64,000 bases of DNA from positions 19,719 through 83,718 of the forward strand of contig DATNLR010000127.1 in NCBI GenBank assembly GCA_035602755.1. Direction: 5' to 3'. How positions within the stretch are numbered: position 1 is the first letter of the stretch; each line of letters starts with the position of its first letter. The stretch comes from Candidatus Binatus sp. (GTDB lineage Bacteria; Acidobacteriota; Terriglobia; Acidiferrales; UBA7541). Both the position numbers and the translations under genes were made by a program. Positions 46,229 to 52,865 of this stretch are shown here, piece after piece. Below the pieces are notes generated by a model. The model had not been told where the DNA came from. It did not search any database and saw nothing but the letters and a program-made list of their open reading frames with translations.

Positions 46229-46702
46229 CCGGCACCTCCTACGCGTTATGTGCCCTTAGACGCCGCGCAATAGCTATTTGTTGCCAGGTCTCAACTATCT
46301 TGCCAGTTGTATCCGGATTCATCCCGTTGCTCCAGTAAAATTGCTCGGGCACTCAATCGAAGCCTGTTTTCCCTGCTGTCACGCAGTTGTACAGAATTGT
46401 AAAACCCCCCTAGAGCCCTTATTTCCGCAAGCGGAAGGCTCGTCTCGCGCGTCTAAGCACGGTGAATGAGCTCGCGGAAGGGAATGTAAATTCTCCGGAC
46501 TCGCGCCCGAAATCTATTGTGGGCGACCGATTTATTGGAGTATGCTCCCCGACGCACTCCCCCGGATTCCACCGGGGCTTGGAACCGGCCCAGTTTTACA
46601 AAACCAACCCAAACAGAAACATCCGAATTCGTCCGGATGGCGTAGTAACAGTAGGAGTGGTTGAAGTCTGATGTCCAAACTCAACAGGAGGTAATTCGGG
46701 AA

Positions 46703-46990
46703 ATGACCAAATCAAAGAAGGCTCTAGTAGCTGGTGCAGCACTTGCAGGCTTGCTTGCCGGTTCCAGCGCAACGATTCAAGCATCGAATCTTCTACCTGG
46801 CTTGAGAGCTGCCGCGCAGTCCGATCAGGCGCCAGCCGACAAGAAGGTGAAGGAAAAGCACGCTTGCAAGGGTCAGAATTCCTGTAAGGGCAAGGGTGGA
46901 TGTAAATCGAGCGACAACGGTTGCAAAGGCAAGAACTCTTGCAAAGGCAAGGGCGGCTGCGCAACCGACGGTTCCAAGATGCCCGAATAA
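46703..46990 (+). CDS. bufA: Bufferin-type (6-Cys class) RiPP precursor peptide with Sec signal peptide
   Basis: AGGAGG lies upstream of the ATG. The signal peptide is MTKSKKALVAGAALAGLLAGSSATIQA. The core is HACKGQNSCKGKGGCKSSDNGCKGKNSCKGKGGCATDG, with 6 Cys in a duplicated CKG(Q/K)NSCKGKGGC module. The gene lies immediately upstream of DUF692, DUF2063 and DoxX genes. The ORF track extends to a TTG at 46661. Confidence 0.7.
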   Translation: MTKSKKALVAGAALAGLLAGSSATIQASNLLPGLRAAAQSDQAPADKKVKEKHACKGQNSCKGKGGCKSSDNGCKGKNSCKGKGGCATDGSKMPE

Positions 46991-47014
46991 GAAGGCGCAA
47001 GCTTTCTCCTGTCC

Positions 47015-47041
47015 AGGGCCGGCTTGGGGCTTACCGGCCCT
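47015..47041 (+). terminator. Intergenic stem-loop between precursor and modifying-enzyme genes (possible partial terminator or mRNA-stabilising hairpin)
   Basis: Perfect 8-bp GC-rich stem AGGGCCGG (47015-47022) / CCGGCCCT (47034-47041) with an 11-nt loop. It sits 25 nt after the precursor stop codon and 31 nt before the DUF692 start. There is no strong U-tract. Confidence 0.4.
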
Positions 47042-47072
47042 CGACATCCCCTTCGATTTACCGGAGTAGCGT

Positions 47073-47924
47073 ATGCCTGCGAATCGCTTTAATAATTTTA
47101 CGGACTATGGGATCGGAATTGGTCTGCGCGCCACGCATTACAATCACATCCTGACGCGCAAGCCGGTAGTGGACTGGTTCGAAATAATTTCCGAGAATTT
47201 CATGATCGATGGCGGCCGACCATTGCGCATCCTCGATCAAATTTTAGAGCAGTACAAAGTCGTGCAGCACGGCGTCTCGATGTACTTTGGTTCAGCGGAA
47301 CGTCCGAACCGCGAGCATCTTCGCCGGCTGAAAGCTCTTGTGAAGCGTACGAATACGCCCTGGCTCTCGGACCACCTTTGCTGGGGAAGCGTGGATGGCC
47401 GCTACACGCACGATCTGCTGCCCATGCCGTACACCTTGGAAGCCGCGCGTATCACGGCGCAGAAGGTTCGCGAAGTCCGCGATTACCTGGAAGTCCCGGT
47501 GGTGGTGGAAAACGTGAGCAGCTACGCGGAATTCCATGTTTCCGAGATGACCGAGTGGGAATTTCTGAACGAAGTGGTGGAGCGCGCCGACTGCGGAATT
47601 CTTCTGGACGTAAACAATATTTACGTTTCGTCAAAAAATCACAATTTCGATCCCTTTACCTACCTCAACAGCGTGCCCCCCGAGCGCGTTGCGCAGATTC
47701 ACATCGCTGGTCATTCAAAGTATCGGAAATATATTTTGGACACCCACGATCATCCGGTGATCGACCCGGTGTGGAAGTTGTACTCCCGCGCGATTGAACG
47801 CATTGGCCACACCGCAACGCTGCTGGAGTGGGACGACAGCATTCCATCATTTGACGAAGTTCACGACGAAGCTTTGAAAGCGAATAGATTCCTGGTCAGC
47901 GCGTCTTTGGCCACGGCCGTATGA
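47073..47924 (+). CDS. bufB: DUF692-family multinuclear non-heme iron oxidase (MNIO; MbnB/BufB-like)
   Basis: Full-length DUF692/UPF0276 pattern: GIGLRATHY, VDWFEIISENFM, HGVSMYFGS, PWLSDHLCW, HDLLPMPYT, VVVENVSSY, LLDVNNIYVSSKNH, IHIAGH, LDTHDHPV and LLEWD. Confidence 0.9.
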   Translation: MPANRFNNFTDYGIGIGLRATHYNHILTRKPVVDWFEIISENFMIDGGRPLRILDQILEQYKVVQHGVSMYFGSAERPNREHLRRLKALVKRTNTPWLSDHLCWGSVDGRYTHDLLPMPYTLEAARITAQKVREVRDYLEVPVVVENVSSYAEFHVSEMTEWEFLNEVVERADCGILLDVNNIYVSSKNHNFDPFTYLNSVPPERVAQIHIAGHSKYRKYILDTHDHPVIDPVWKLYSRAIERIGHTATLLEWDDSIPSFDEVHDEALKANRFLVSASLATAV

Positions 47925-48865
47925 AGCTGCTTGCTCTCCAACGTCGCATGGCCCGCGCGGTAATGACACCGTTAACGCCGTCGGAGCATATGCGTTCGGT
48001 TACGCCCGATGGACGCTCGATGCGCGCGGTGGCGTCTGAAATCATCAAGCCAAACGATCGCCTAACTTCTTTCGAGCGCCTGGAAATCTATAATCGACAG
48101 TATTGGTTTCGGATTCTGTCAGGATTCGCCGAGGATTTTCCCGGCCTTCGCAGCGTGCTGGGAGGAAATCGATTTGATCGTATGGCGAAGGCCTATCTTA
48201 GCGATTGCCCTTCGCAATCCTTCACTTTGCGCAATTTAGGAGCGCGCCTGGAAGGCTGGTTGAGGAAACATGCTCAGTGGGCGGGCACGCGGCAGTTGCT
48301 CGCTCTCGATATGGTACGGCTCGAATGGGCTGATATCGAAGCTTTCGATGGTCTGGCTGAGTCTCCGCTAAAACCGGAAGACCTTGCGGGCGCGAATCCA
48401 GCGAAGTTGCGTTTGCGCCTGCAGCCTTACATTCAGCTTCTGGATTTGCACTACCCGGTTGACGATCTGTTGTTGGAAGTTCGCAAAGTTGAGCAGGACA
48501 CGGATTTCGCCAGCAATGCATTCAGCGAGCGCCATCATCGAAAACGGGTTTCTGCCGTCGCCCGATTGAAAACCGAGCCGATTTTTCTGGCGGTACATCG
48601 CATGGACGATTCGGTTTATTTTCGACGGTTGCAGGCGGAAGAGTTTGCCATTCTGCGCGTTCTTCGTGGAGGTAAACCGCTCAATACCGCGGTGGAATCC
48701 GCGTTGAAAAAGAGTTCGATTGCGACCGAAGAGCGGCCCGCTCAGGTGCAACACTGGTTTCAAACTTGGTCGGCGCTGGGTTGGTTTTGCCGCGTCGCCG
48801 ATGATGTCGCAGAACGAAATTCAGCAGGGCAAACCACGCCGGGAGCAAAGGTTTCCATAAAATGA
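47921..48865 (+). CDS. bufC: DUF2063-family partner protein (MbnC/BufC-like substrate-recruiting subunit)
   Basis: ATGA start/stop overlap with the DUF692 gene. N-terminus LLALQRRMARAVMTP... and YRNQY-like IYNRQYWFRI are typical of DUF2063. The size and position match the DUF692-DUF2063 pairing. Confidence 0.75.
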   Translation: MKLLALQRRMARAVMTPLTPSEHMRSVTPDGRSMRAVASEIIKPNDRLTSFERLEIYNRQYWFRILSGFAEDFPGLRSVLGGNRFDRMAKAYLSDCPSQSFTLRNLGARLEGWLRKHAQWAGTRQLLALDMVRLEWADIEAFDGLAESPLKPEDLAGANPAKLRLRLQPYIQLLDLHYPVDDLLLEVRKVEQDTDFASNAFSERHHRKRVSAVARLKTEPIFLAVHRMDDSVYFRRLQAEEFAILRVLRGGKPLNTAVESALKKSSIATEERPAQVQHWFQTWSALGWFCRVADDVAERNSAGQTTPGAKVSIK

Positions 48866-49374
48866 ACGACGCAGCAAATCCAATTCTGCGGCTCTATAAC
48901 GGCTTCGTACGAGTTGTTTCCAGCCTTCAATCACCGTTTTTGCTGGTGGTTCGGGTGTATTGGGGCTGGCAAATCTCGCAAAATGGATGGGGCAAACTTC
49001 ACAACTTGCAGCATGTGACGCAATTCTTTGCGAGTCTTGGGCTGCCAGCGCCGGGATTTACGGCGGCGTTTGTCTCCAGTTTTGAGTTCACGGCTGGAAT
49101 TTTGCTGGCCGTGGGATTGTTGTCGAGAATTGCCGCGTTGGGCCTGGTAATTGATATGACCATGGCGTATTTGACCTCGGATCGAGATTCTTTTTTCGCA
49201 TTTTTTTCAAACCCGGGGAAATTTTACGGCGCCGATCCATTTATTTTTCTGTTCGTGGGCCTGCTCCTATTGATTTTCGGGCCGGGCAAAATCTCTCTCG
49301 ATGCGCTCCTGAAGCGAATGATGGGAAAAGGCAAATATTCAGACTCCGCAGAGACCAGCTCCTCCGCGGCTTGA
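48862..49374 (+). CDS. DoxX-family membrane protein
   Basis: ATGA overlap with the DUF2063 gene. Four TM helices with the DoxX-like blocks LLVVRVYWGWQISQNGWGKL and FEFTAGILLAVGLLSRIAALGL. Confidence 0.8.
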   Translation: MNDAANPILRLYNGFVRVVSSLQSPFLLVVRVYWGWQISQNGWGKLHNLQHVTQFFASLGLPAPGFTAAFVSSFEFTAGILLAVGLLSRIAALGLVIDMTMAYLTSDRDSFFAFFSNPGKFYGADPFIFLFVGLLLLIFGPGKISLDALLKRMMGKGKYSDSAETSSSAA

Positions 49375-49425: not shown

Positions 49426-50433
49426 ATGAAATCAAAAAAGCTTCGAGGCGCGTTTCTAGGTTCGGCAGTATTCTGCTTGTTCGCGGTAATTTCGGCGGGT
49501 TCCTTTCGAACTGACCAAATGACGTCGACCATCGTTATTGGAAATTCACGAATTGATGTGGCGGTGGAGAAGGGAACGCTGCAGGTATCGAAGGACGATT
49601 TGCTGAAGTGGGTGCAGTGGGCTGCGGAGTCCGTTAGCACCTATTACGGGCGTTTTCCGCTCCCTCATGTTTTGCTGCGCATCATCCCGACGGATGGAAA
49701 AGGTGTGCGCAACGGCCGCACGTTCGGAGAAAGAGGCGGATTCATCACCATTCACGTGGGGGCAAATTCCACCTTCGAAGATCTCGCAAATGATTGGATG
49801 CTCACGCACGAAATGGTTCACCTGGCATTTCCGTCGGTCGCCGACGAGCATCACTGGATCGAAGAGGGCATTGCAACCTACGTGGAACCGATCGCGCGCG
49901 TGCGAGCAAAACATCTGGACGCCACACAGATGTGGAGAGAGCTGATTCGCGACTTGCATCAGGGTCTTCCCGCGGCCGGAGATCGAGGGCTCGACAACAC
50001 TCATACCTGGGGGCGCACCTATTGGGGCGGTGCACTCTACTGTTTTCTCGCCGATATTGATATCCACCGGCAAACTCAAAACAAGAAAGGGCTAGACGAT
50101 GCGCTGCGGGGCATCCTGAACGCGGGAGGCGACATTCGCCAGGACTGGGAGCTTAGCAAGGCTCTCGATATCGGAGATCAAGCAGTTGGCGTGAAAGTTT
50201 TGCGGCCACTCTACGACAAGATGAAAGATCAGCCATACGATGTGGACCTTCCTGCGATATGGAAACAATTAGGCATCGAGCTCGAAGGCGGGAGAATTCA
50301 TTTTGTGGATGACGCGCCCCTTTCAAAGACGCGCGAAGCGATTACCTATGGATCGGTTGCGGCCGGATCCAACCCTGTTTCCGCCCTGAGTGTCGTTGTG
50401 GGAGATAGGGCCATGAATTTCCCGCAGCGCTAA
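49426..50433 (+). CDS. Secreted putative zinc metallopeptidase (HExxH, gluzincin-like)
   Basis: Signal peptide MKSKKLRGAFLGSAVFCLFAVISAGS. The HEMVH motif is at nt 49807-49821, followed by ...EHHWIEEGIATYVEP. It starts 51 nt downstream of the DoxX gene on the same strand. The family is not firmly recognised. Confidence 0.55.
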   Translation: MKSKKLRGAFLGSAVFCLFAVISAGSFRTDQMTSTIVIGNSRIDVAVEKGTLQVSKDDLLKWVQWAAESVSTYYGRFPLPHVLLRIIPTDGKGVRNGRTFGERGGFITIHVGANSTFEDLANDWMLTHEMVHLAFPSVADEHHWIEEGIATYVEPIARVRAKHLDATQMWRELIRDLHQGLPAAGDRGLDNTHTWGRTYWGGALYCFLADIDIHRQTQNKKGLDDALRGILNAGGDIRQDWELSKALDIGDQAVGVKVLRPLYDKMKDQPYDVDLPAIWKQLGIELEGGRIHFVDDAPLSKTREAITYGSVAAGSNPVSALSVVVGDRAMNFPQR

Positions 50434-50501: not shown

Positions 50502-52865
50502 TCACTTCGTTTTCATCACATACACCCCATCCCAATCGGCCTGCGGGGCTTCCTCTATGAATTCCTCGGCGCGTTCCAGGAAGGCCTGGGTCGGACCGTC
50601 GTCCGGATAGATGGTGAGAATTTGAGCGAATCTGTCAGCGGCTTCCTGCCAATCCTGGTTGCGGTATGCGGCCATGGCGTGATCGAATTGTTGCAGTAAC
50701 GCTTCGTATTGGGGTCTTTCCGCCGCCACATCGAGCAATTCGTAAATATTTACAGGCTGGTTTTTTCCCTTCACTTTTATCTTGTCCAGTTCGCGGCAGA
50801 CAAATTGGGAGGCAATCTCGCGGTAGGTCGCCTCGCTGATAACCAGCTTGGAGTGATACTGCTTGGTGATCCCTTCCAGGCGCGATGCAAGGTTTACGTT
50901 GTCGCCCATCACCGTCCATGCAAGACGCCGGTCCGAGCCCATATTCCCCACGTTGACGAGCCCGGTATTTAATCCAATTCCCACCGCAATCGGCGGACGT
51001 CCCTCGTTCCGCCATTTCAAATTCAATTTTTCCAGGCCTCGCACCATCTCCAGAGCGCAACTACAACTGCGGAAGGCGTGGTCTAGCTGGGGATAAGGCG
51101 ATCCCCAGAAAGCCATGATGGCGTCACCAATGTATTTGTCCAGCGTGCCCTGATAAGAAAAAATAATTTCGGTCATGGCGCCGAAGTATTCATTCAACAA
51201 GTGTACGAGGTCGTCCGGCGATAGTCCTTCCGACAGCGTTGTAAAACTGCGGATATCGCTGAACATGATGGTCAGCTCTTTCATCTCGCCGCCAGGCCGA
51301 ATGTACTTTTCCGGATCTTTCTCGATTAACTCGATCACCCCTGGCGACAAATACTGCGAGAAACTCTTTCGGATTTGCCGTTTGGCGCGCTCCTCGCGGA
51401 TCATTCGAAAACTAGTGATGGCTGCATAGTTGGCTGCCAGGGTGCCGGCAGGAATGACAAAACTGAGCCACCTTCCGTGGCTGGCGAAACTGAAATAGAC
51501 GAAGCACGCGAATGCCACCAGGGTGACGATCACCGTGATGGTGGAATAGAGCGGCGCGATACGGCTGAATACGAACCCGAAAACGAGACCAAAGATTAGA
51601 ATAAAAGCTAGGTCCACTATTTCTTCGTCTGTTCCGCGGCTTAGAAATCCGCGGCCTTTTTCTCCGCTATGCAACAGATTGTCGATGATGTTTGCATGCA
51701 CCTCCACGCCCATGTAGCCGGTGTCCTGCCAGGGAGTATTACGAACGTCACCGGTGGCCAGCGCTGTCGCGCCGACGAGTACGATCTTGTCACGGAAGGC
51801 CTCCGGTGGAGTGCTTCCTCGAATAACATCGGCCATGGAATAGTGCGGGTAGGTATTGTAGGGGCCGGTGTAATTGATCAGAGCGGTGCCGTTGCGCGAG
51901 GGCCGCAAAACATGTTCGCCGAGTTGAATTCGCTCCAAGCCATCTTCGGCGATATAGGCCACGATCTGCTGGTCGGGAATTTTTTCGTATTCGCGAATCA
52001 CTTGCATGGGCAGCGAAGGAAAGAAATCCTTGTCCTGGTAGCGGATCATCAACAGAGCACGCCGCAGAGTGCCGTCTGCGTCGGGATTAATATTTAGAAA
52101 ACCGTAGGACGCCGCTGATTCAGCAATCTTGCTGATGTTGGCTTCTACACCGGCGGCCACTGTTCCACCGTTTTGGATCCACGCGCTGCCCAGGTCAAAA
52201 GCTTTCCCGTTTTTCGACTTGACCGGCACAACTTGCGGAAAGGTTTGAGCCCATACGATGTTGAAATACTCCTCCGCTGATTTCGTTTCAGCAGATTTTG
52301 CTCGTTCCGGACTGAGAAATAGGTGGCCCAGGATTACGTCGCCGCCCTCCTTCAGTGCGGTTGCAAAATGGGCGTCCTGATCGGTAGAGACTTCCAGTTC
52401 TTTTACCTGCCTCAGGACATTTGGCGAGATGGACGCGCCGAGATTTTTCTGCAATTGCTCGAGTGTTTGCGGCCCCGAATTGCTTTCCGGAGTGGGGAAC
52501 GATTCGTCAAACGCGATGATGCGCGCTCCGCCGGCATTTAGCCGTTCAACCAAAGCTGCATAGTTGCTTCGTGGAAGAGGAAAGGAATTGATTGTTTGGA
52601 GTGTTCTCTCGTCCATACCGACAATGACGATTCGCGGGTCATGCGGGCGCGCTCCGCGCAGACTGAACCTGGTATCCAGCGAGCTTTGTTCAATATTCTG
52701 GAGGAAAACAAAGCCTGCGCGATTGTCACCATTAATTCCAGAGAAAACAAAGAGCGTAAGTCCGCTCAGCGTAACCAGGAGGGCCAAGGCGATATCGATA
52801 CGAACGAAGGGGAACTCTCTGAGTCGCGCCGCCCAGCGAGACCCGTGCTCTTCCTGAGGTGTCAT
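50502..52865 (-). CDS. CHASE2 sensor - class III adenylate/guanylate cyclase with C-terminal TPR-like tail
   Basis: N-terminal TM, a ~350-aa periplasmic CHASE2-like region (IVIVGMDERTL, IAFDESF, VLVGATA) and three TM helices. The cyclase domain carries TIMFSDIRSFTTLSE, GDAIMAFWG, GIGLNTG.V.VGNMGS and NLASRLEG. Confidence 0.85.
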   Translation of the reverse strand: MTPQEEHGSRWAARLREFPFVRIDIALALLVTLSGLTLFVFSGINGDNRAGFVFLQNIEQSSLDTRFSLRGARPHDPRIVIVGMDERTLQTINSFPLPRSNYAALVERLNAGGARIIAFDESFPTPESNSGPQTLEQLQKNLGASISPNVLRQVKELEVSTDQDAHFATALKEGGDVILGHLFLSPERAKSAETKSAEEYFNIVWAQTFPQVVPVKSKNGKAFDLGSAWIQNGGTVAAGVEANISKIAESAASYGFLNINPDADGTLRRALLMIRYQDKDFFPSLPMQVIREYEKIPDQQIVAYIAEDGLERIQLGEHVLRPSRNGTALINYTGPYNTYPHYSMADVIRGSTPPEAFRDKIVLVGATALATGDVRNTPWQDTGYMGVEVHANIIDNLLHSGEKGRGFLSRGTDEEIVDLAFILIFGLVFGFVFSRIAPLYSTITVIVTLVAFACFVYFSFASHGRWLSFVIPAGTLAANYAAITSFRMIREERAKRQIRKSFSQYLSPGVIELIEKDPEKYIRPGGEMKELTIMFSDIRSFTTLSEGLSPDDLVHLLNEYFGAMTEIIFSYQGTLDKYIGDAIMAFWGSPYPQLDHAFRSCSCALEMVRGLEKLNLKWRNEGRPPIAVGIGLNTGLVNVGNMGSDRRLAWTVMGDNVNLASRLEGITKQYHSKLVISEATYREIASQFVCRELDKIKVKGKNQPVNIYELLDVAAERPQYEALLQQFDHAMAAYRNQDWQEAADRFAQILTIYPDDGPTQAFLERAEEFIEEAPQADWDGVYVMKTK

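Follow-up and report, generated by a model that had tools for sequence, protein, structure and literature searches.

What is the small Cys-rich peptide encoded at positions 46,703 to 46,990 of a 64,000-nucleotide stretch of Candidatus Binatus sp. DNA (contig DATNLR010000127.1 of assembly GCA_035602755.1; this whole stretch is referred to as the window), and why is its core made of two almost identical halves? An earlier note, made from the letters of the window, had described the core as an old internal duplication under purifying selection, with Cys residues placed for a heterocyclising enzyme and a positive charge that is odd for a metal chelator. We consider it probable that the peptide is the precursor of a Buf2-type bufferin, also called a 'Cys-Lys' captophorin, that is, a thiooxazole metallophore made by an MNIO enzyme, and that its Cys-rich core goes back to an ancient tandem duplication. 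As part of the same reading, both modules have probably been kept because each supplies Cys in a context that the maturase recognises.

In bufferin systems, BufB and BufC convert Cys residues of the precursor to 5-thiooxazoles, and after export, which is Sec-dependent, the peptides act as copper buffers in the periplasm; both Buf1 and Buf2 give Caulobacter protection against copper (PMC11626156). The second bufferin family was named BUF_6/12Cys and later Buf2. Its members contain six Cys in about 90% of cases and twelve in the remainder, and the 12-Cys bufferins were described as duplicated 6-Cys domains (PMC12452194). Cys-Lys captophorins is the name given by Gadgil et al. to the same precursors as Buf2 (PMC13097082).

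Two Modules in a Putatively Secreted Precursor

The product of the open reading frame on the forward strand is MTKSKKALVAGAALAGLLAGSSATIQASNLLPGLRAAAQSDQAPADKKVKEKHACKGQNSCKGKGGCKSSDNGCKGKNSCKGKGGCATDGSKMPE. Its two 13-residue modules, A and B, are identical at 12 of 13 residues, the sole difference being Q58/K77. Both modules are spaced C-x5-C-x5-C. A, S or G stands before each Cys, and the residue after it is K in five cases and A in one. The module DNA strings quoted in the earlier note match the sequence exactly; 9 of the 12 identical residues are encoded by different codons, with one non-synonymous change, and on all of these points that description was correct. Shuffling the mature peptide 5000 times, and the Cys region another 5000 times, gave a best 13-mer self-match of only 9/13, compared with the observed 12/13, which excludes a chance origin of the repeat. 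Each module in turn consists of two C-K-G-x-x-x hexads. The Cys region of 32 residues contains 8 K and 9 G and has a net charge of +7, and the predicted mature peptide has a net charge of +8 and an isoelectric point of 9.4.

By inspection, the N-terminus reads as a signal peptide, in which a basic n-region, MTKSKK, precedes a hydrophobic core of 14 residues and the residues at -3 and -1 are small, and inspection of this region of the precursor found no lipobox Cys. The signal-peptide region is kept in homologs of the precursor. In the homolog alignment, S28, N29, L30 and the core-adjacent K-E-K-H-A of the exported N-terminal part are invariant or nearly so, and the segment between them differs in length and sequence. 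An antisense open reading frame at 46596..47000 (134 residues) and the other overlapping frames were unsupported and were taken as noise.

The bufABCD Operon and Its Maturase

The precursor gene is the first of a four-gene operon on one strand, bufA, bufB, bufC and doxX, whose genes overlap or lie nearly adjacent. BufB scored 348.6 bits against NF050167, above the equivalog cut-off of 310, and matched PF05114 (MbnB_TglH_ChrH fold) with an E value of 3.8e-107 and 357.9 bits. The earlier proposal of a Cys-heterocyclising enzyme was thus borne out by BufB, encoded next to the precursor, and the DUF2063 partner that follows it, and heterocyclisation of Cys in the window peptide, predicted by homology with the studied bufferins, is well supported by this context.

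The subtype of the enzyme was read from its active-site motif. This motif is E-R-D-F in PDB 3BWW, E-R-D-G in a Buf1-type enzyme and E-R-D-D in two canonical Buf2-type enzymes, and E252-W-D254-D255 was found in the window BufB. The Asp beside the catalytic base (BufB2 Asp251) has been proposed to contact the Lys that follows the substrate Cys, and Lys-Cys MNIOs have Phe at this position (FonB Phe250) (PMC13097082). Since its motif carries Asp as the Buf2-type enzymes do, the window BufB is a Cys-Lys-type MNIO, and the Lys behind five of the precursor's six Cys would be the expected recognition feature. The locus accordingly combines the features by which a 'Cys-Lys' captophorin is recognised, namely five C-K dipeptides, adjoining bufB and bufC genes, and Asp255 in BufB.

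Comparison with Canonical BufA2

The precursor also shows features of Buf2 or BUF_6/12Cys peptides: a signal peptide (by inspection), six Cys, and the gene order bufA-bufB (MNIO)-bufC (DUF2063). Its sole NCBIfam match was BufA2 (NF050166), with an E value of 3e-10. As canonical examples, we used the annotated BufA2 peptides of Asticcacaulis excentricus pASTEX01 and a Legionella pneumophila plasmid. Canonical buf2 operons on annotated plasmids were reached via a BufB search; a tblastn search of plasmids with the precursor gave no match, probably because of low-complexity masking.

Canonical BufA2 and the window peptide share a Sec signal peptide, the position of the precursor gene immediately upstream of the MNIO and DUF2063 genes, the pattern H-x-C-x-G-x-N-x-C-K-G-x-x-x-C, a six-residue linker, and C-K-G-x-N-x-C-K-G-x-G. 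The first five Cys are spaced 5-5-6-5 in both, and E-x-D-D is common to both MNIOs. In the alignment, Cys55 to Cys80 of the window correspond to canonical CysI-V, with module A opposite CysI-III and Cys74 and Cys80 opposite CysIV and CysV, respectively. The two differ at the C-terminal end. Canonical BufA2 is spaced 5-5-6-5-12 (85 of 89 sequences), with CysVI in a C-terminal 'C-L-x-x-G-G-x-I' tail, whereas the window peptide is spaced 5-5-6-5-5 and the tail is absent. The residue after CysI is Y or S in canonical BufA2 and K in the window, and the residue after the sixth Cys is L and A, respectively. Caulobacter buf2 has no doxX (PMC11626156), whereas the window operon does. Against NF050166, canonical peptides scored 80 to 100 bits (Asticcacaulis 100.1, Legionella 80.5) and the window peptide 40 bits (40.2).

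Several of these results weigh against the assignment to Buf2. The 40.2 bits lie below the curated BufA2 cut-off of 60 bits and the match covers only profile positions 15-64 of 79, so that equivalog status under NF050166 was rejected for the precursor. Not all six Cys are positionally homologous to those of the founding type: window Cys86 aligns with the F/V of canonical 'C-K-G-x-G-[FV]' and not with CysVI. Because the sixth Cys is non-homologous to CysVI and the tail is absent, the canonical pattern of an outer disulfide and four thiooxazoles is not confidently transferable. AlphaFold2 run on the mature peptide with a 44-sequence alignment returned a mean predicted local distance difference test (pLDDT) of 52.5 and a predicted template modelling score (pTM) of 0.26, which leaves the assignment without structural support. 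The neighbourhood of the operon showed neither a copper-responsive regulator nor any other copper gene. Canonical BufA2 does not have the strong positive charge, and the literature yielded no published experimental test of the chemistry or metal binding of peptides with this tandem layout.

By its sequence, the window peptide belongs to a distinct 'perfect tandem' subfamily with 5-5-6-5-5 spacing, no Cys-bearing C-terminal tail and a charge of about +8. This subfamily dominates in soil Acidobacteriota and lies below the NCBI cut-off for BufA2. The NCBI model misses it, and its relatives are therefore named 'hypothetical protein'.

Three observations concern the canonical peptides themselves. 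Weak precomputed DUF2282 (PF10048) matches were found for canonical BufA2 sequences P0403, P0409, P0410, P0417, P0432, P0449, P0460, P0461 and P0467 and for none of the tandem-type peptides, a hint that what canonical BufA2 has in common with Buf1 is its C-terminal tail; the window precursor had no PF10048 match even at E values up to 10. On pASTEX01 (L083, 237241-243023), a buf1 operon (DUF2282-DUF692-DUF2063-DoxX) lies back to back with the buf2 operon, after which come two NrsF genes and a gene for a sigma-70-family RNA polymerase sigma factor; a published survey reported sigma/anti-sigma genes in Buf1 clusters but not in Buf2 clusters. The unmodified residues of Caulobacter Buf2 are numbered CysI = Cys24 and CysVI = Cys50 in a 61-residue peptide (PMC11626156). 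If the 5-5-6-5-12 spacing of its relatives is assumed and CysVI is placed at residue 50, CysI falls at residue 12 and the Cys at 24 is CysIII, so either C. vibrioides has another spacing or the published numbering is off.

Conservation in Relatives

Homologs of the precursor fall into more than 7,600 clusters at 90% identity, with 1,325 matches among 50%-identity representatives. The named relatives are Candidatus Acidiferrales/Acidoferrum and other Acidobacteriota, together with some metagenome-assembled genomes labelled Verrucomicrobiota or Eremiobacterota. Cultured relatives with the operon include Edaphobacter aggregans DSM 19364 (L055) and Silvibacterium bohemicum (L080). For synteny, 80 related loci were chosen by BufB (79-94% identity) and not by the peptide. 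The precursor lies directly upstream of bufB in all 80, as the earlier note had anticipated for close relatives that keep the maturase; bufC was found in 79 and doxX in 73.

The earlier reading also depended on conserved Cys positions, and the 80 loci did not contradict it, although conservation is not absolute: Cys I, II, V and VI are invariant, and Cys III and IV, which flank the linker, are dispensable. Six Cys were found in 71 loci; five have lost CysIV (L040, L043, L059, L061 and L063), and four have lost both CysIII and CysIV (L062, L064, L076 and L079), with BufB at least 79% identical in all nine. The layout of the 4-Cys peptides resembles Buf1. The joint loss of CysIII and CysIV would be consistent with a hairpin-like, pseudo-symmetric pairing I-VI, II-V and III-IV. 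The spacing 5-5-6-5-5 was found in 69 loci, and two have an 8-residue linker.

BufB proteins 79-91% identical to that of the window were found in metagenome-assembled genomes labelled Verrucomicrobiota, Eremiobacterota, Eisenbacteria or Chthoniobacterales (L013, L016, L025, L033, L037-L040, L042, L049, L050, L060, L066, L071 and L075), some with near-identical precursors. This suggests horizontal transfer of the operon or mis-binned contigs.

Which Cys Are Modified

Each of the four central Cys of Caulobacter Buf2 loses 4.03 Da, and a disulfide between CysI and CysVI is presumed (PMC11626156). This pattern can be carried to the window Cys by ordinal position only. An alternative to it is that all six Cys become thiooxazoles with no disulfide, which would make the peptide a flexible multi-copper chelator nearer to oxazolin or fontiphorin than to folded Buf1 or Buf2. 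Every window Cys is followed by K or A, like the modified Cys of Buf1 and canonical Buf2, and the unmodified canonical CysI and CysVI are followed by Y/S and L, respectively. Each module Cys position matches a central modified Cys of canonical Buf2 (PMC11626156), the CysVI tail is absent, and the low AlphaFold2 confidence would be consistent with little fixed fold. The surroundings of every window Cys have a modified counterpart somewhere in canonical Buf2, which does not establish that all six are substrates. However, this assignment comes from sequence context, CysI retains the preceding His seen in canonical BufA2, and the natural 4-Cys variants keep Cys I, II, V and VI, mirroring the outer disulfide and two inner thiooxazoles of Buf1, so that four thiooxazoles plus a disulfide fit equally well. 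We regard six thiooxazoles as a real possibility, though not the favoured one.

The repeat-built relatives that this alternative brings to mind are the EGKCG captophorins (oxazolin, fontiphorin, gonophorin and bulbicupramide), whose precursors are Cys-rich like that of the window. They are modified by an MNIO with DUF2063, carry six or seven thiooxazoles without a disulfide staple, and are associated with copper (PMC13097082). Their repeats are Lys-Cys-Gly 5-mers and their MNIO has Phe, whereas the window has Cys-Lys-Gly and Asp255; FonBC failed to process an NACKG substrate (PMC13097082). Membership in the EGKCG/oxazolin group (HvfA-HvfB-HvfC) was rejected, as there is no EGKCG motif and the scores were 249.9 against a required 360 bits for HvfB, 42.4 against 142 for HvfC (the weak match of BufC) and 52.8 against 80 for HvfX.

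The remaining MNIO systems resemble the Buf2-type locus to different degrees. Buf1 (DUF2282, gig operons) has the same operon logic of A, MNIO, DUF2063 and DoxX, and it has a G-x-N-x-C motif at the modified Cys, as in the window (PMC11626156). Its Cys are converted to 5-thiooxazoles and it buffers periplasmic copper (PMC11626156), a likeness that would extend to the window by homology. Unlike the window peptide, Buf1 has four Cys, a folded beta/alpha domain, no tandem modules and an MNIO with E-R-D-G. Methanobactin is likewise a copper-binding peptide with MNIO-modified Cys, but in place of a Sec signal it has a leader peptide, together with oxazolone-thioamide groups, the partner MbnC and a role in copper acquisition. 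Membership there was rejected, since MbnB scored 40.3 against 325 bits and the precursor has a signal peptide and not an MbnA-type leader.

Positive Charge

The median net charge is +8 in the tandem subfamily (n = 227) and +1 in canonical BufA2 (n = 87). The charge is therefore unusual, as the earlier note had said, but its step from charge to a target other than metal found no support in the form given. A Lys behind the Cys is what Cys-Lys MNIOs are described as recognising (PMC13097082), so positive charge alone does not point away from metal. The charge of the window peptide nevertheless exceeds what recognition of Lys after Cys requires.

A second alternative is that the peptide stays unmodified or has a target other than metal, as a periplasmic metallothionein-like thiolate binder or as a cationic, defensin-like or envelope-binding peptide. 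The charge of +8, the richness in Cys, Gly and Lys, and a subfamily far more cationic than canonical BufA2 would suit such a role, and lipoproteins make up about 16% of Buf2 peptides, which means that the family does include envelope-associated members (PMC12452194). However, linkage to bufB and bufC is invariant in the 80 loci, the precursor Lys match Asp255 of the enzyme, the conotoxin and defensin-like Pfam matches of the peptide (E values of 0.45 and 4.6) are insignificant and were put down to chance, and there is no nearby immunity gene, no nearby dedicated transporter gene and no lipobox. This makes an unmodified or non-metal peptide very unlikely.

Age of the Duplication

For a bufferin precursor with an internal duplication, the question is how old the duplication is. 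In 110 two-module representatives, the linker is six residues in every case, with the consensus K-[STA]-[GS]-D-N-G. Module A in these sequences has the profile C-K-G-[QK]-N-S-C-K-G-[KQ]-G-G-C and always follows K-H-x, and module B has the profile C-K-G-K-N-S-C-K-G-K-G-G-C, with D-N-G before it and A-T-D-G after it. C1, N5, C7, G11 and C13 of the module are invariant. In a distant 12-Cys clade of 106 proteins, modules 1 and 3 are A-type and modules 2 and 4 are B-type, the latter with the consensus C-A-G-K-N-S-C-K-G-K-G-G-C-A. Because the order A-B-A-B is kept in this clade, the split between A and B predates both the 6-to-12 duplication and the separation of the clades. A degenerate duplication is visible in canonical proteobacterial BufA2 too.

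The 12-Cys peptides otherwise share with the window the 13-residue modules, the six-residue A-B linker and the B consensus C-[AK]-G-K-N-S-C-K-G-K-G-G-C. They differ in their four modules in A-B-A-B order, an inter-unit linker of 7-8 residues, a first B-module Cys that is mostly followed by Ala, often lipoprotein-type signals, and an end '-C-A-V-P-V-K-H'.

The codons were compared in 60 genes, comprising the window and related loci. Modules A and B differ on average by 4.4 synonymous codons within a gene (range 1-9) and by 4.6 between genes, and random codon choice would give 4.6. Since divergence within genes equals that between genes, concerted evolution or strong gene conversion is unsupported. 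The 9 differences of the window are the maximum and lie in the upper tail (P about 0.01 per gene, with 60 genes examined). Selection against DNA repeats was rejected as the cause of these 9 differences, given the mean of 4.4 against 4.6 expected.

The earlier note had read the synonymous pattern as a sign of age. It does show that the duplication is not recent, but the synonymous sites are saturated, hold no signal of orthology and leave the age undated. The non-synonymous to synonymous rate ratio (dN/dS, omega) between the modules, which the earlier note had put forward as a measure, can be bounded only as far below 1, as dN is 0.033 and the Nei-Gojobori proportion of synonymous differences (pS) exceeds 0.75, with dS undefined. 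The conserved identities of A and B, and not the codons, are the real evidence for the age of the duplication. An old duplication under purifying selection therefore stood, with flanks and residues of A and B kept in Acidobacteriota, in the 12-Cys clade and in canonical BufA2.

That the modules are alike through a recent slippage event, through gene conversion, or because selection converged on a K/G/C stretch of low complexity is most improbable, for although copy-number change is real (three modules in P0002 and P0019, one in P0169 and P0203, a hexad deletion in P0009), P0002 modules lie only 3 to 5 nucleotides apart, and two or fewer synonymous differences were found in 13 of the 60 genes, about twice a rough binomial estimate of about 6 that does not allow for the genes not being independent, 9 of the 12 comparable codons differ in the window, A and B keep distinct flanks and residues across phyla and in A-B-A-B proteins, the A-linker-B layout is collinear with canonical BufA2, and module divergence is no lower within genes than between them.

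Module Copy Number

Among 150 representatives, two modules were found in 111, four in 26, three in 2, five in 2, one in 8 and none in 1, and the one- and zero-module entries are mostly truncated or frameshifted. A 6-module protein also exists (P0271). The earlier note had considered one, two or four copies; two is indeed usual, but copy number runs from 1 to 6, including 3, 5 and 6, and 4- and 5-Cys forms occur as well. In P0169 and P0203, exactly one module plus linker (19 residues) is deleted, and P0009 lacks exactly one hexad. Because arrangements such as A-A-A-B (P0143) and A-B-B (P0002) exist, single modules have been gained and lost, and not only 6-Cys units.

The three-module, 9-Cys precursors of A-B-B type were each found on a single short metagenomic contig, at L081:859-1206 (P0002) and L082:249-614 (P0019). 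The small distance between the P0002 modules, unlike that in the window, reflects either a module gained recently or an artefact of assembly, the contig being 1.2 kb long.

Proposed Function and Implications

By homology with the studied bufferins, the Buf2-type peptide would act as follows. The precursor would be made in excess over the enzymes, with a conserved hairpin 3' of its gene. In the cytoplasm, the BufB (MNIO)-BufC (DUF2063) pair would oxidise Cys to 5-thiooxazoles, with Asp255 of BufB reading the Lys after the Cys. Sec would then export the peptide, and the signal peptide would be removed after Ala23 or Ala27, as judged by inspection. The product would remain periplasmic and sequester excess Cu(I) and Cu(II) via thiooxazole N and S donors. 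For comparison, Buf1 binds copper 1:1 in a 2N2S shell, with a dissociation constant of roughly 6e-15 M in the case of Cu(II) and roughly 7e-20 M in that of Cu(I) (PMC11626156).

The operon, the enzyme, the chemistry class, the Cys-Lys repeat character and the 6/12-Cys classes are already published. None of the papers found sets the tandem subfamily apart from canonical BufA2 or describes an A/B module of 13 residues. Bufferins are among the largest families of RiPPs, peptides that are made on the ribosome and modified after translation, and bench work covers only proteobacterial members; in soil metagenomes, the tandem subfamily makes up thousands of sequence clusters, whose members stay 'hypothetical protein' under the present NCBI rules. 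A known system accounts for the peptide, and its internal duplication is shared across the family rather than peculiar to this genome. Two copies of one 13-residue unit stand in register, which makes the choice of Cys by an MNIO directly testable, and the natural variants with 1 to 6 copies or with lost Cys are ready-made controls for it. The operon could also shed light on copper handling by Acidobacteria of acidic soils.

As a more speculative and rather doubtful extension, the perfect-tandem cationic peptides could form a functionally distinct branch of bufferins, abundant in acidic soils. Such a peptide would carry six thiooxazoles, or more in the 3- to 6-module forms, and neither a staple nor a folded tail, and would act as a modular chelator of several copper or other soft-metal ions, with a capacity that scales with the number of modules. 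Its Lys would have a second role, for instance in retention at the anionic envelope or in balancing thiolate charge, and the HExxH peptidase encoded downstream might trim it.

Features of the Locus and Flanking Genes

The coordinates of the features are collected in Table 1.

Table 1. Features of the bufABCD locus, in positions of the window.
Feature	Position	Strand	Remarks
Shine-Dalgarno-like AGGAGG	46686..46691	+	11 nucleotides 5' of the precursor ATG; direct sequence reading
bufA-like precursor gene, putative tandem-type Buf2	46703..46990	+	95 residues plus stop
Predicted Sec signal peptide, residues 1-27	46703..46783	+	Cleavage after SSA23 or IQA27; by inspection
N-terminal part of exported peptide (SNLL...KVKEKHA)	46784..46864	+	Ends conserved, middle variable
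Module A, CKGQNSCKGKGGC, residues 55-67 (Cys55, 61, 67)	46865..46903	+	DNA TGCAAGGGTCAGAATTCCTGTAAGGGCAAGGGTGGATGT
Linker KSSDNG, six residues	46904..46921	+	Joins modules A and B
Module B, CKGKNSCKGKGGC, residues 74-86 (Cys74, 80, 86)	46922..46960	+	DNA TGCAAAGGCAAGAACTCTTGCAAAGGCAAGGGCGGCTGC
Short C-terminal tail ATDGSKMPE	46961..46987	+	Without the canonical 'C-L-x-x-G-G-x-I' tail
GC-rich stem-loop, GGGCCGG/CCGGCCC core	47010..47046	+	bufA-bufB intergenic
bufB, MNIO (DUF692) bufferin maturase, 'Cys-Lys' type	47073..47924	+	NF050167, PF05114
bufC, DUF2063 partner (PME1/RRE-type)	47921..48865	+	Start overlaps bufB stop; PF09836 51.2 bits, cut-off 27.2
bufD, DoxX membrane protein	48862..49374	+	Start overlaps bufC stop; PF07681 65.4 bits
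Secreted HExxH protein, 335 residues, possible accessory gene	49426..50433	+	52 nucleotides after doxX; HEMVH motif

The stem-loop between bufA and bufB is weak in the window taken alone (z-score of -1.8). A hairpin of at least 8 pairs was found at this position in the window and in all 77 related loci tested, with a median z-score of -3.0 and values of -2 or below in 63 of the 78. The stems differ in sequence between lineages, and 19 hairpins are followed by at least 5 T in 8 nucleotides. The hairpin is a candidate attenuator or messenger RNA stabiliser that may set the ratio of precursor to enzyme. On the forward strand, neither a sigma-70 promoter nor a T-run terminator was found.

The HExxH protein has a signal-peptide-like N-terminus. 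Its sole match was a sub-threshold one to Peptidase_M61 (E value of 0.011), and a search of PDB sequences gave none. The gene lies downstream of bufABCD in 40 of the 80 related loci, and its product might be a lineage-specific trimming peptidase; in published surveys, additional conserved genes are rare in bufferin clusters. A CHASE2-sensor adenylate/guanylate cyclase of 787 residues with C-terminal TPR is encoded on the reverse strand at 50502..52865, convergent on the 3' end of the operon. It was present in only 2 of the 80 related loci and is probably unrelated to the operon.

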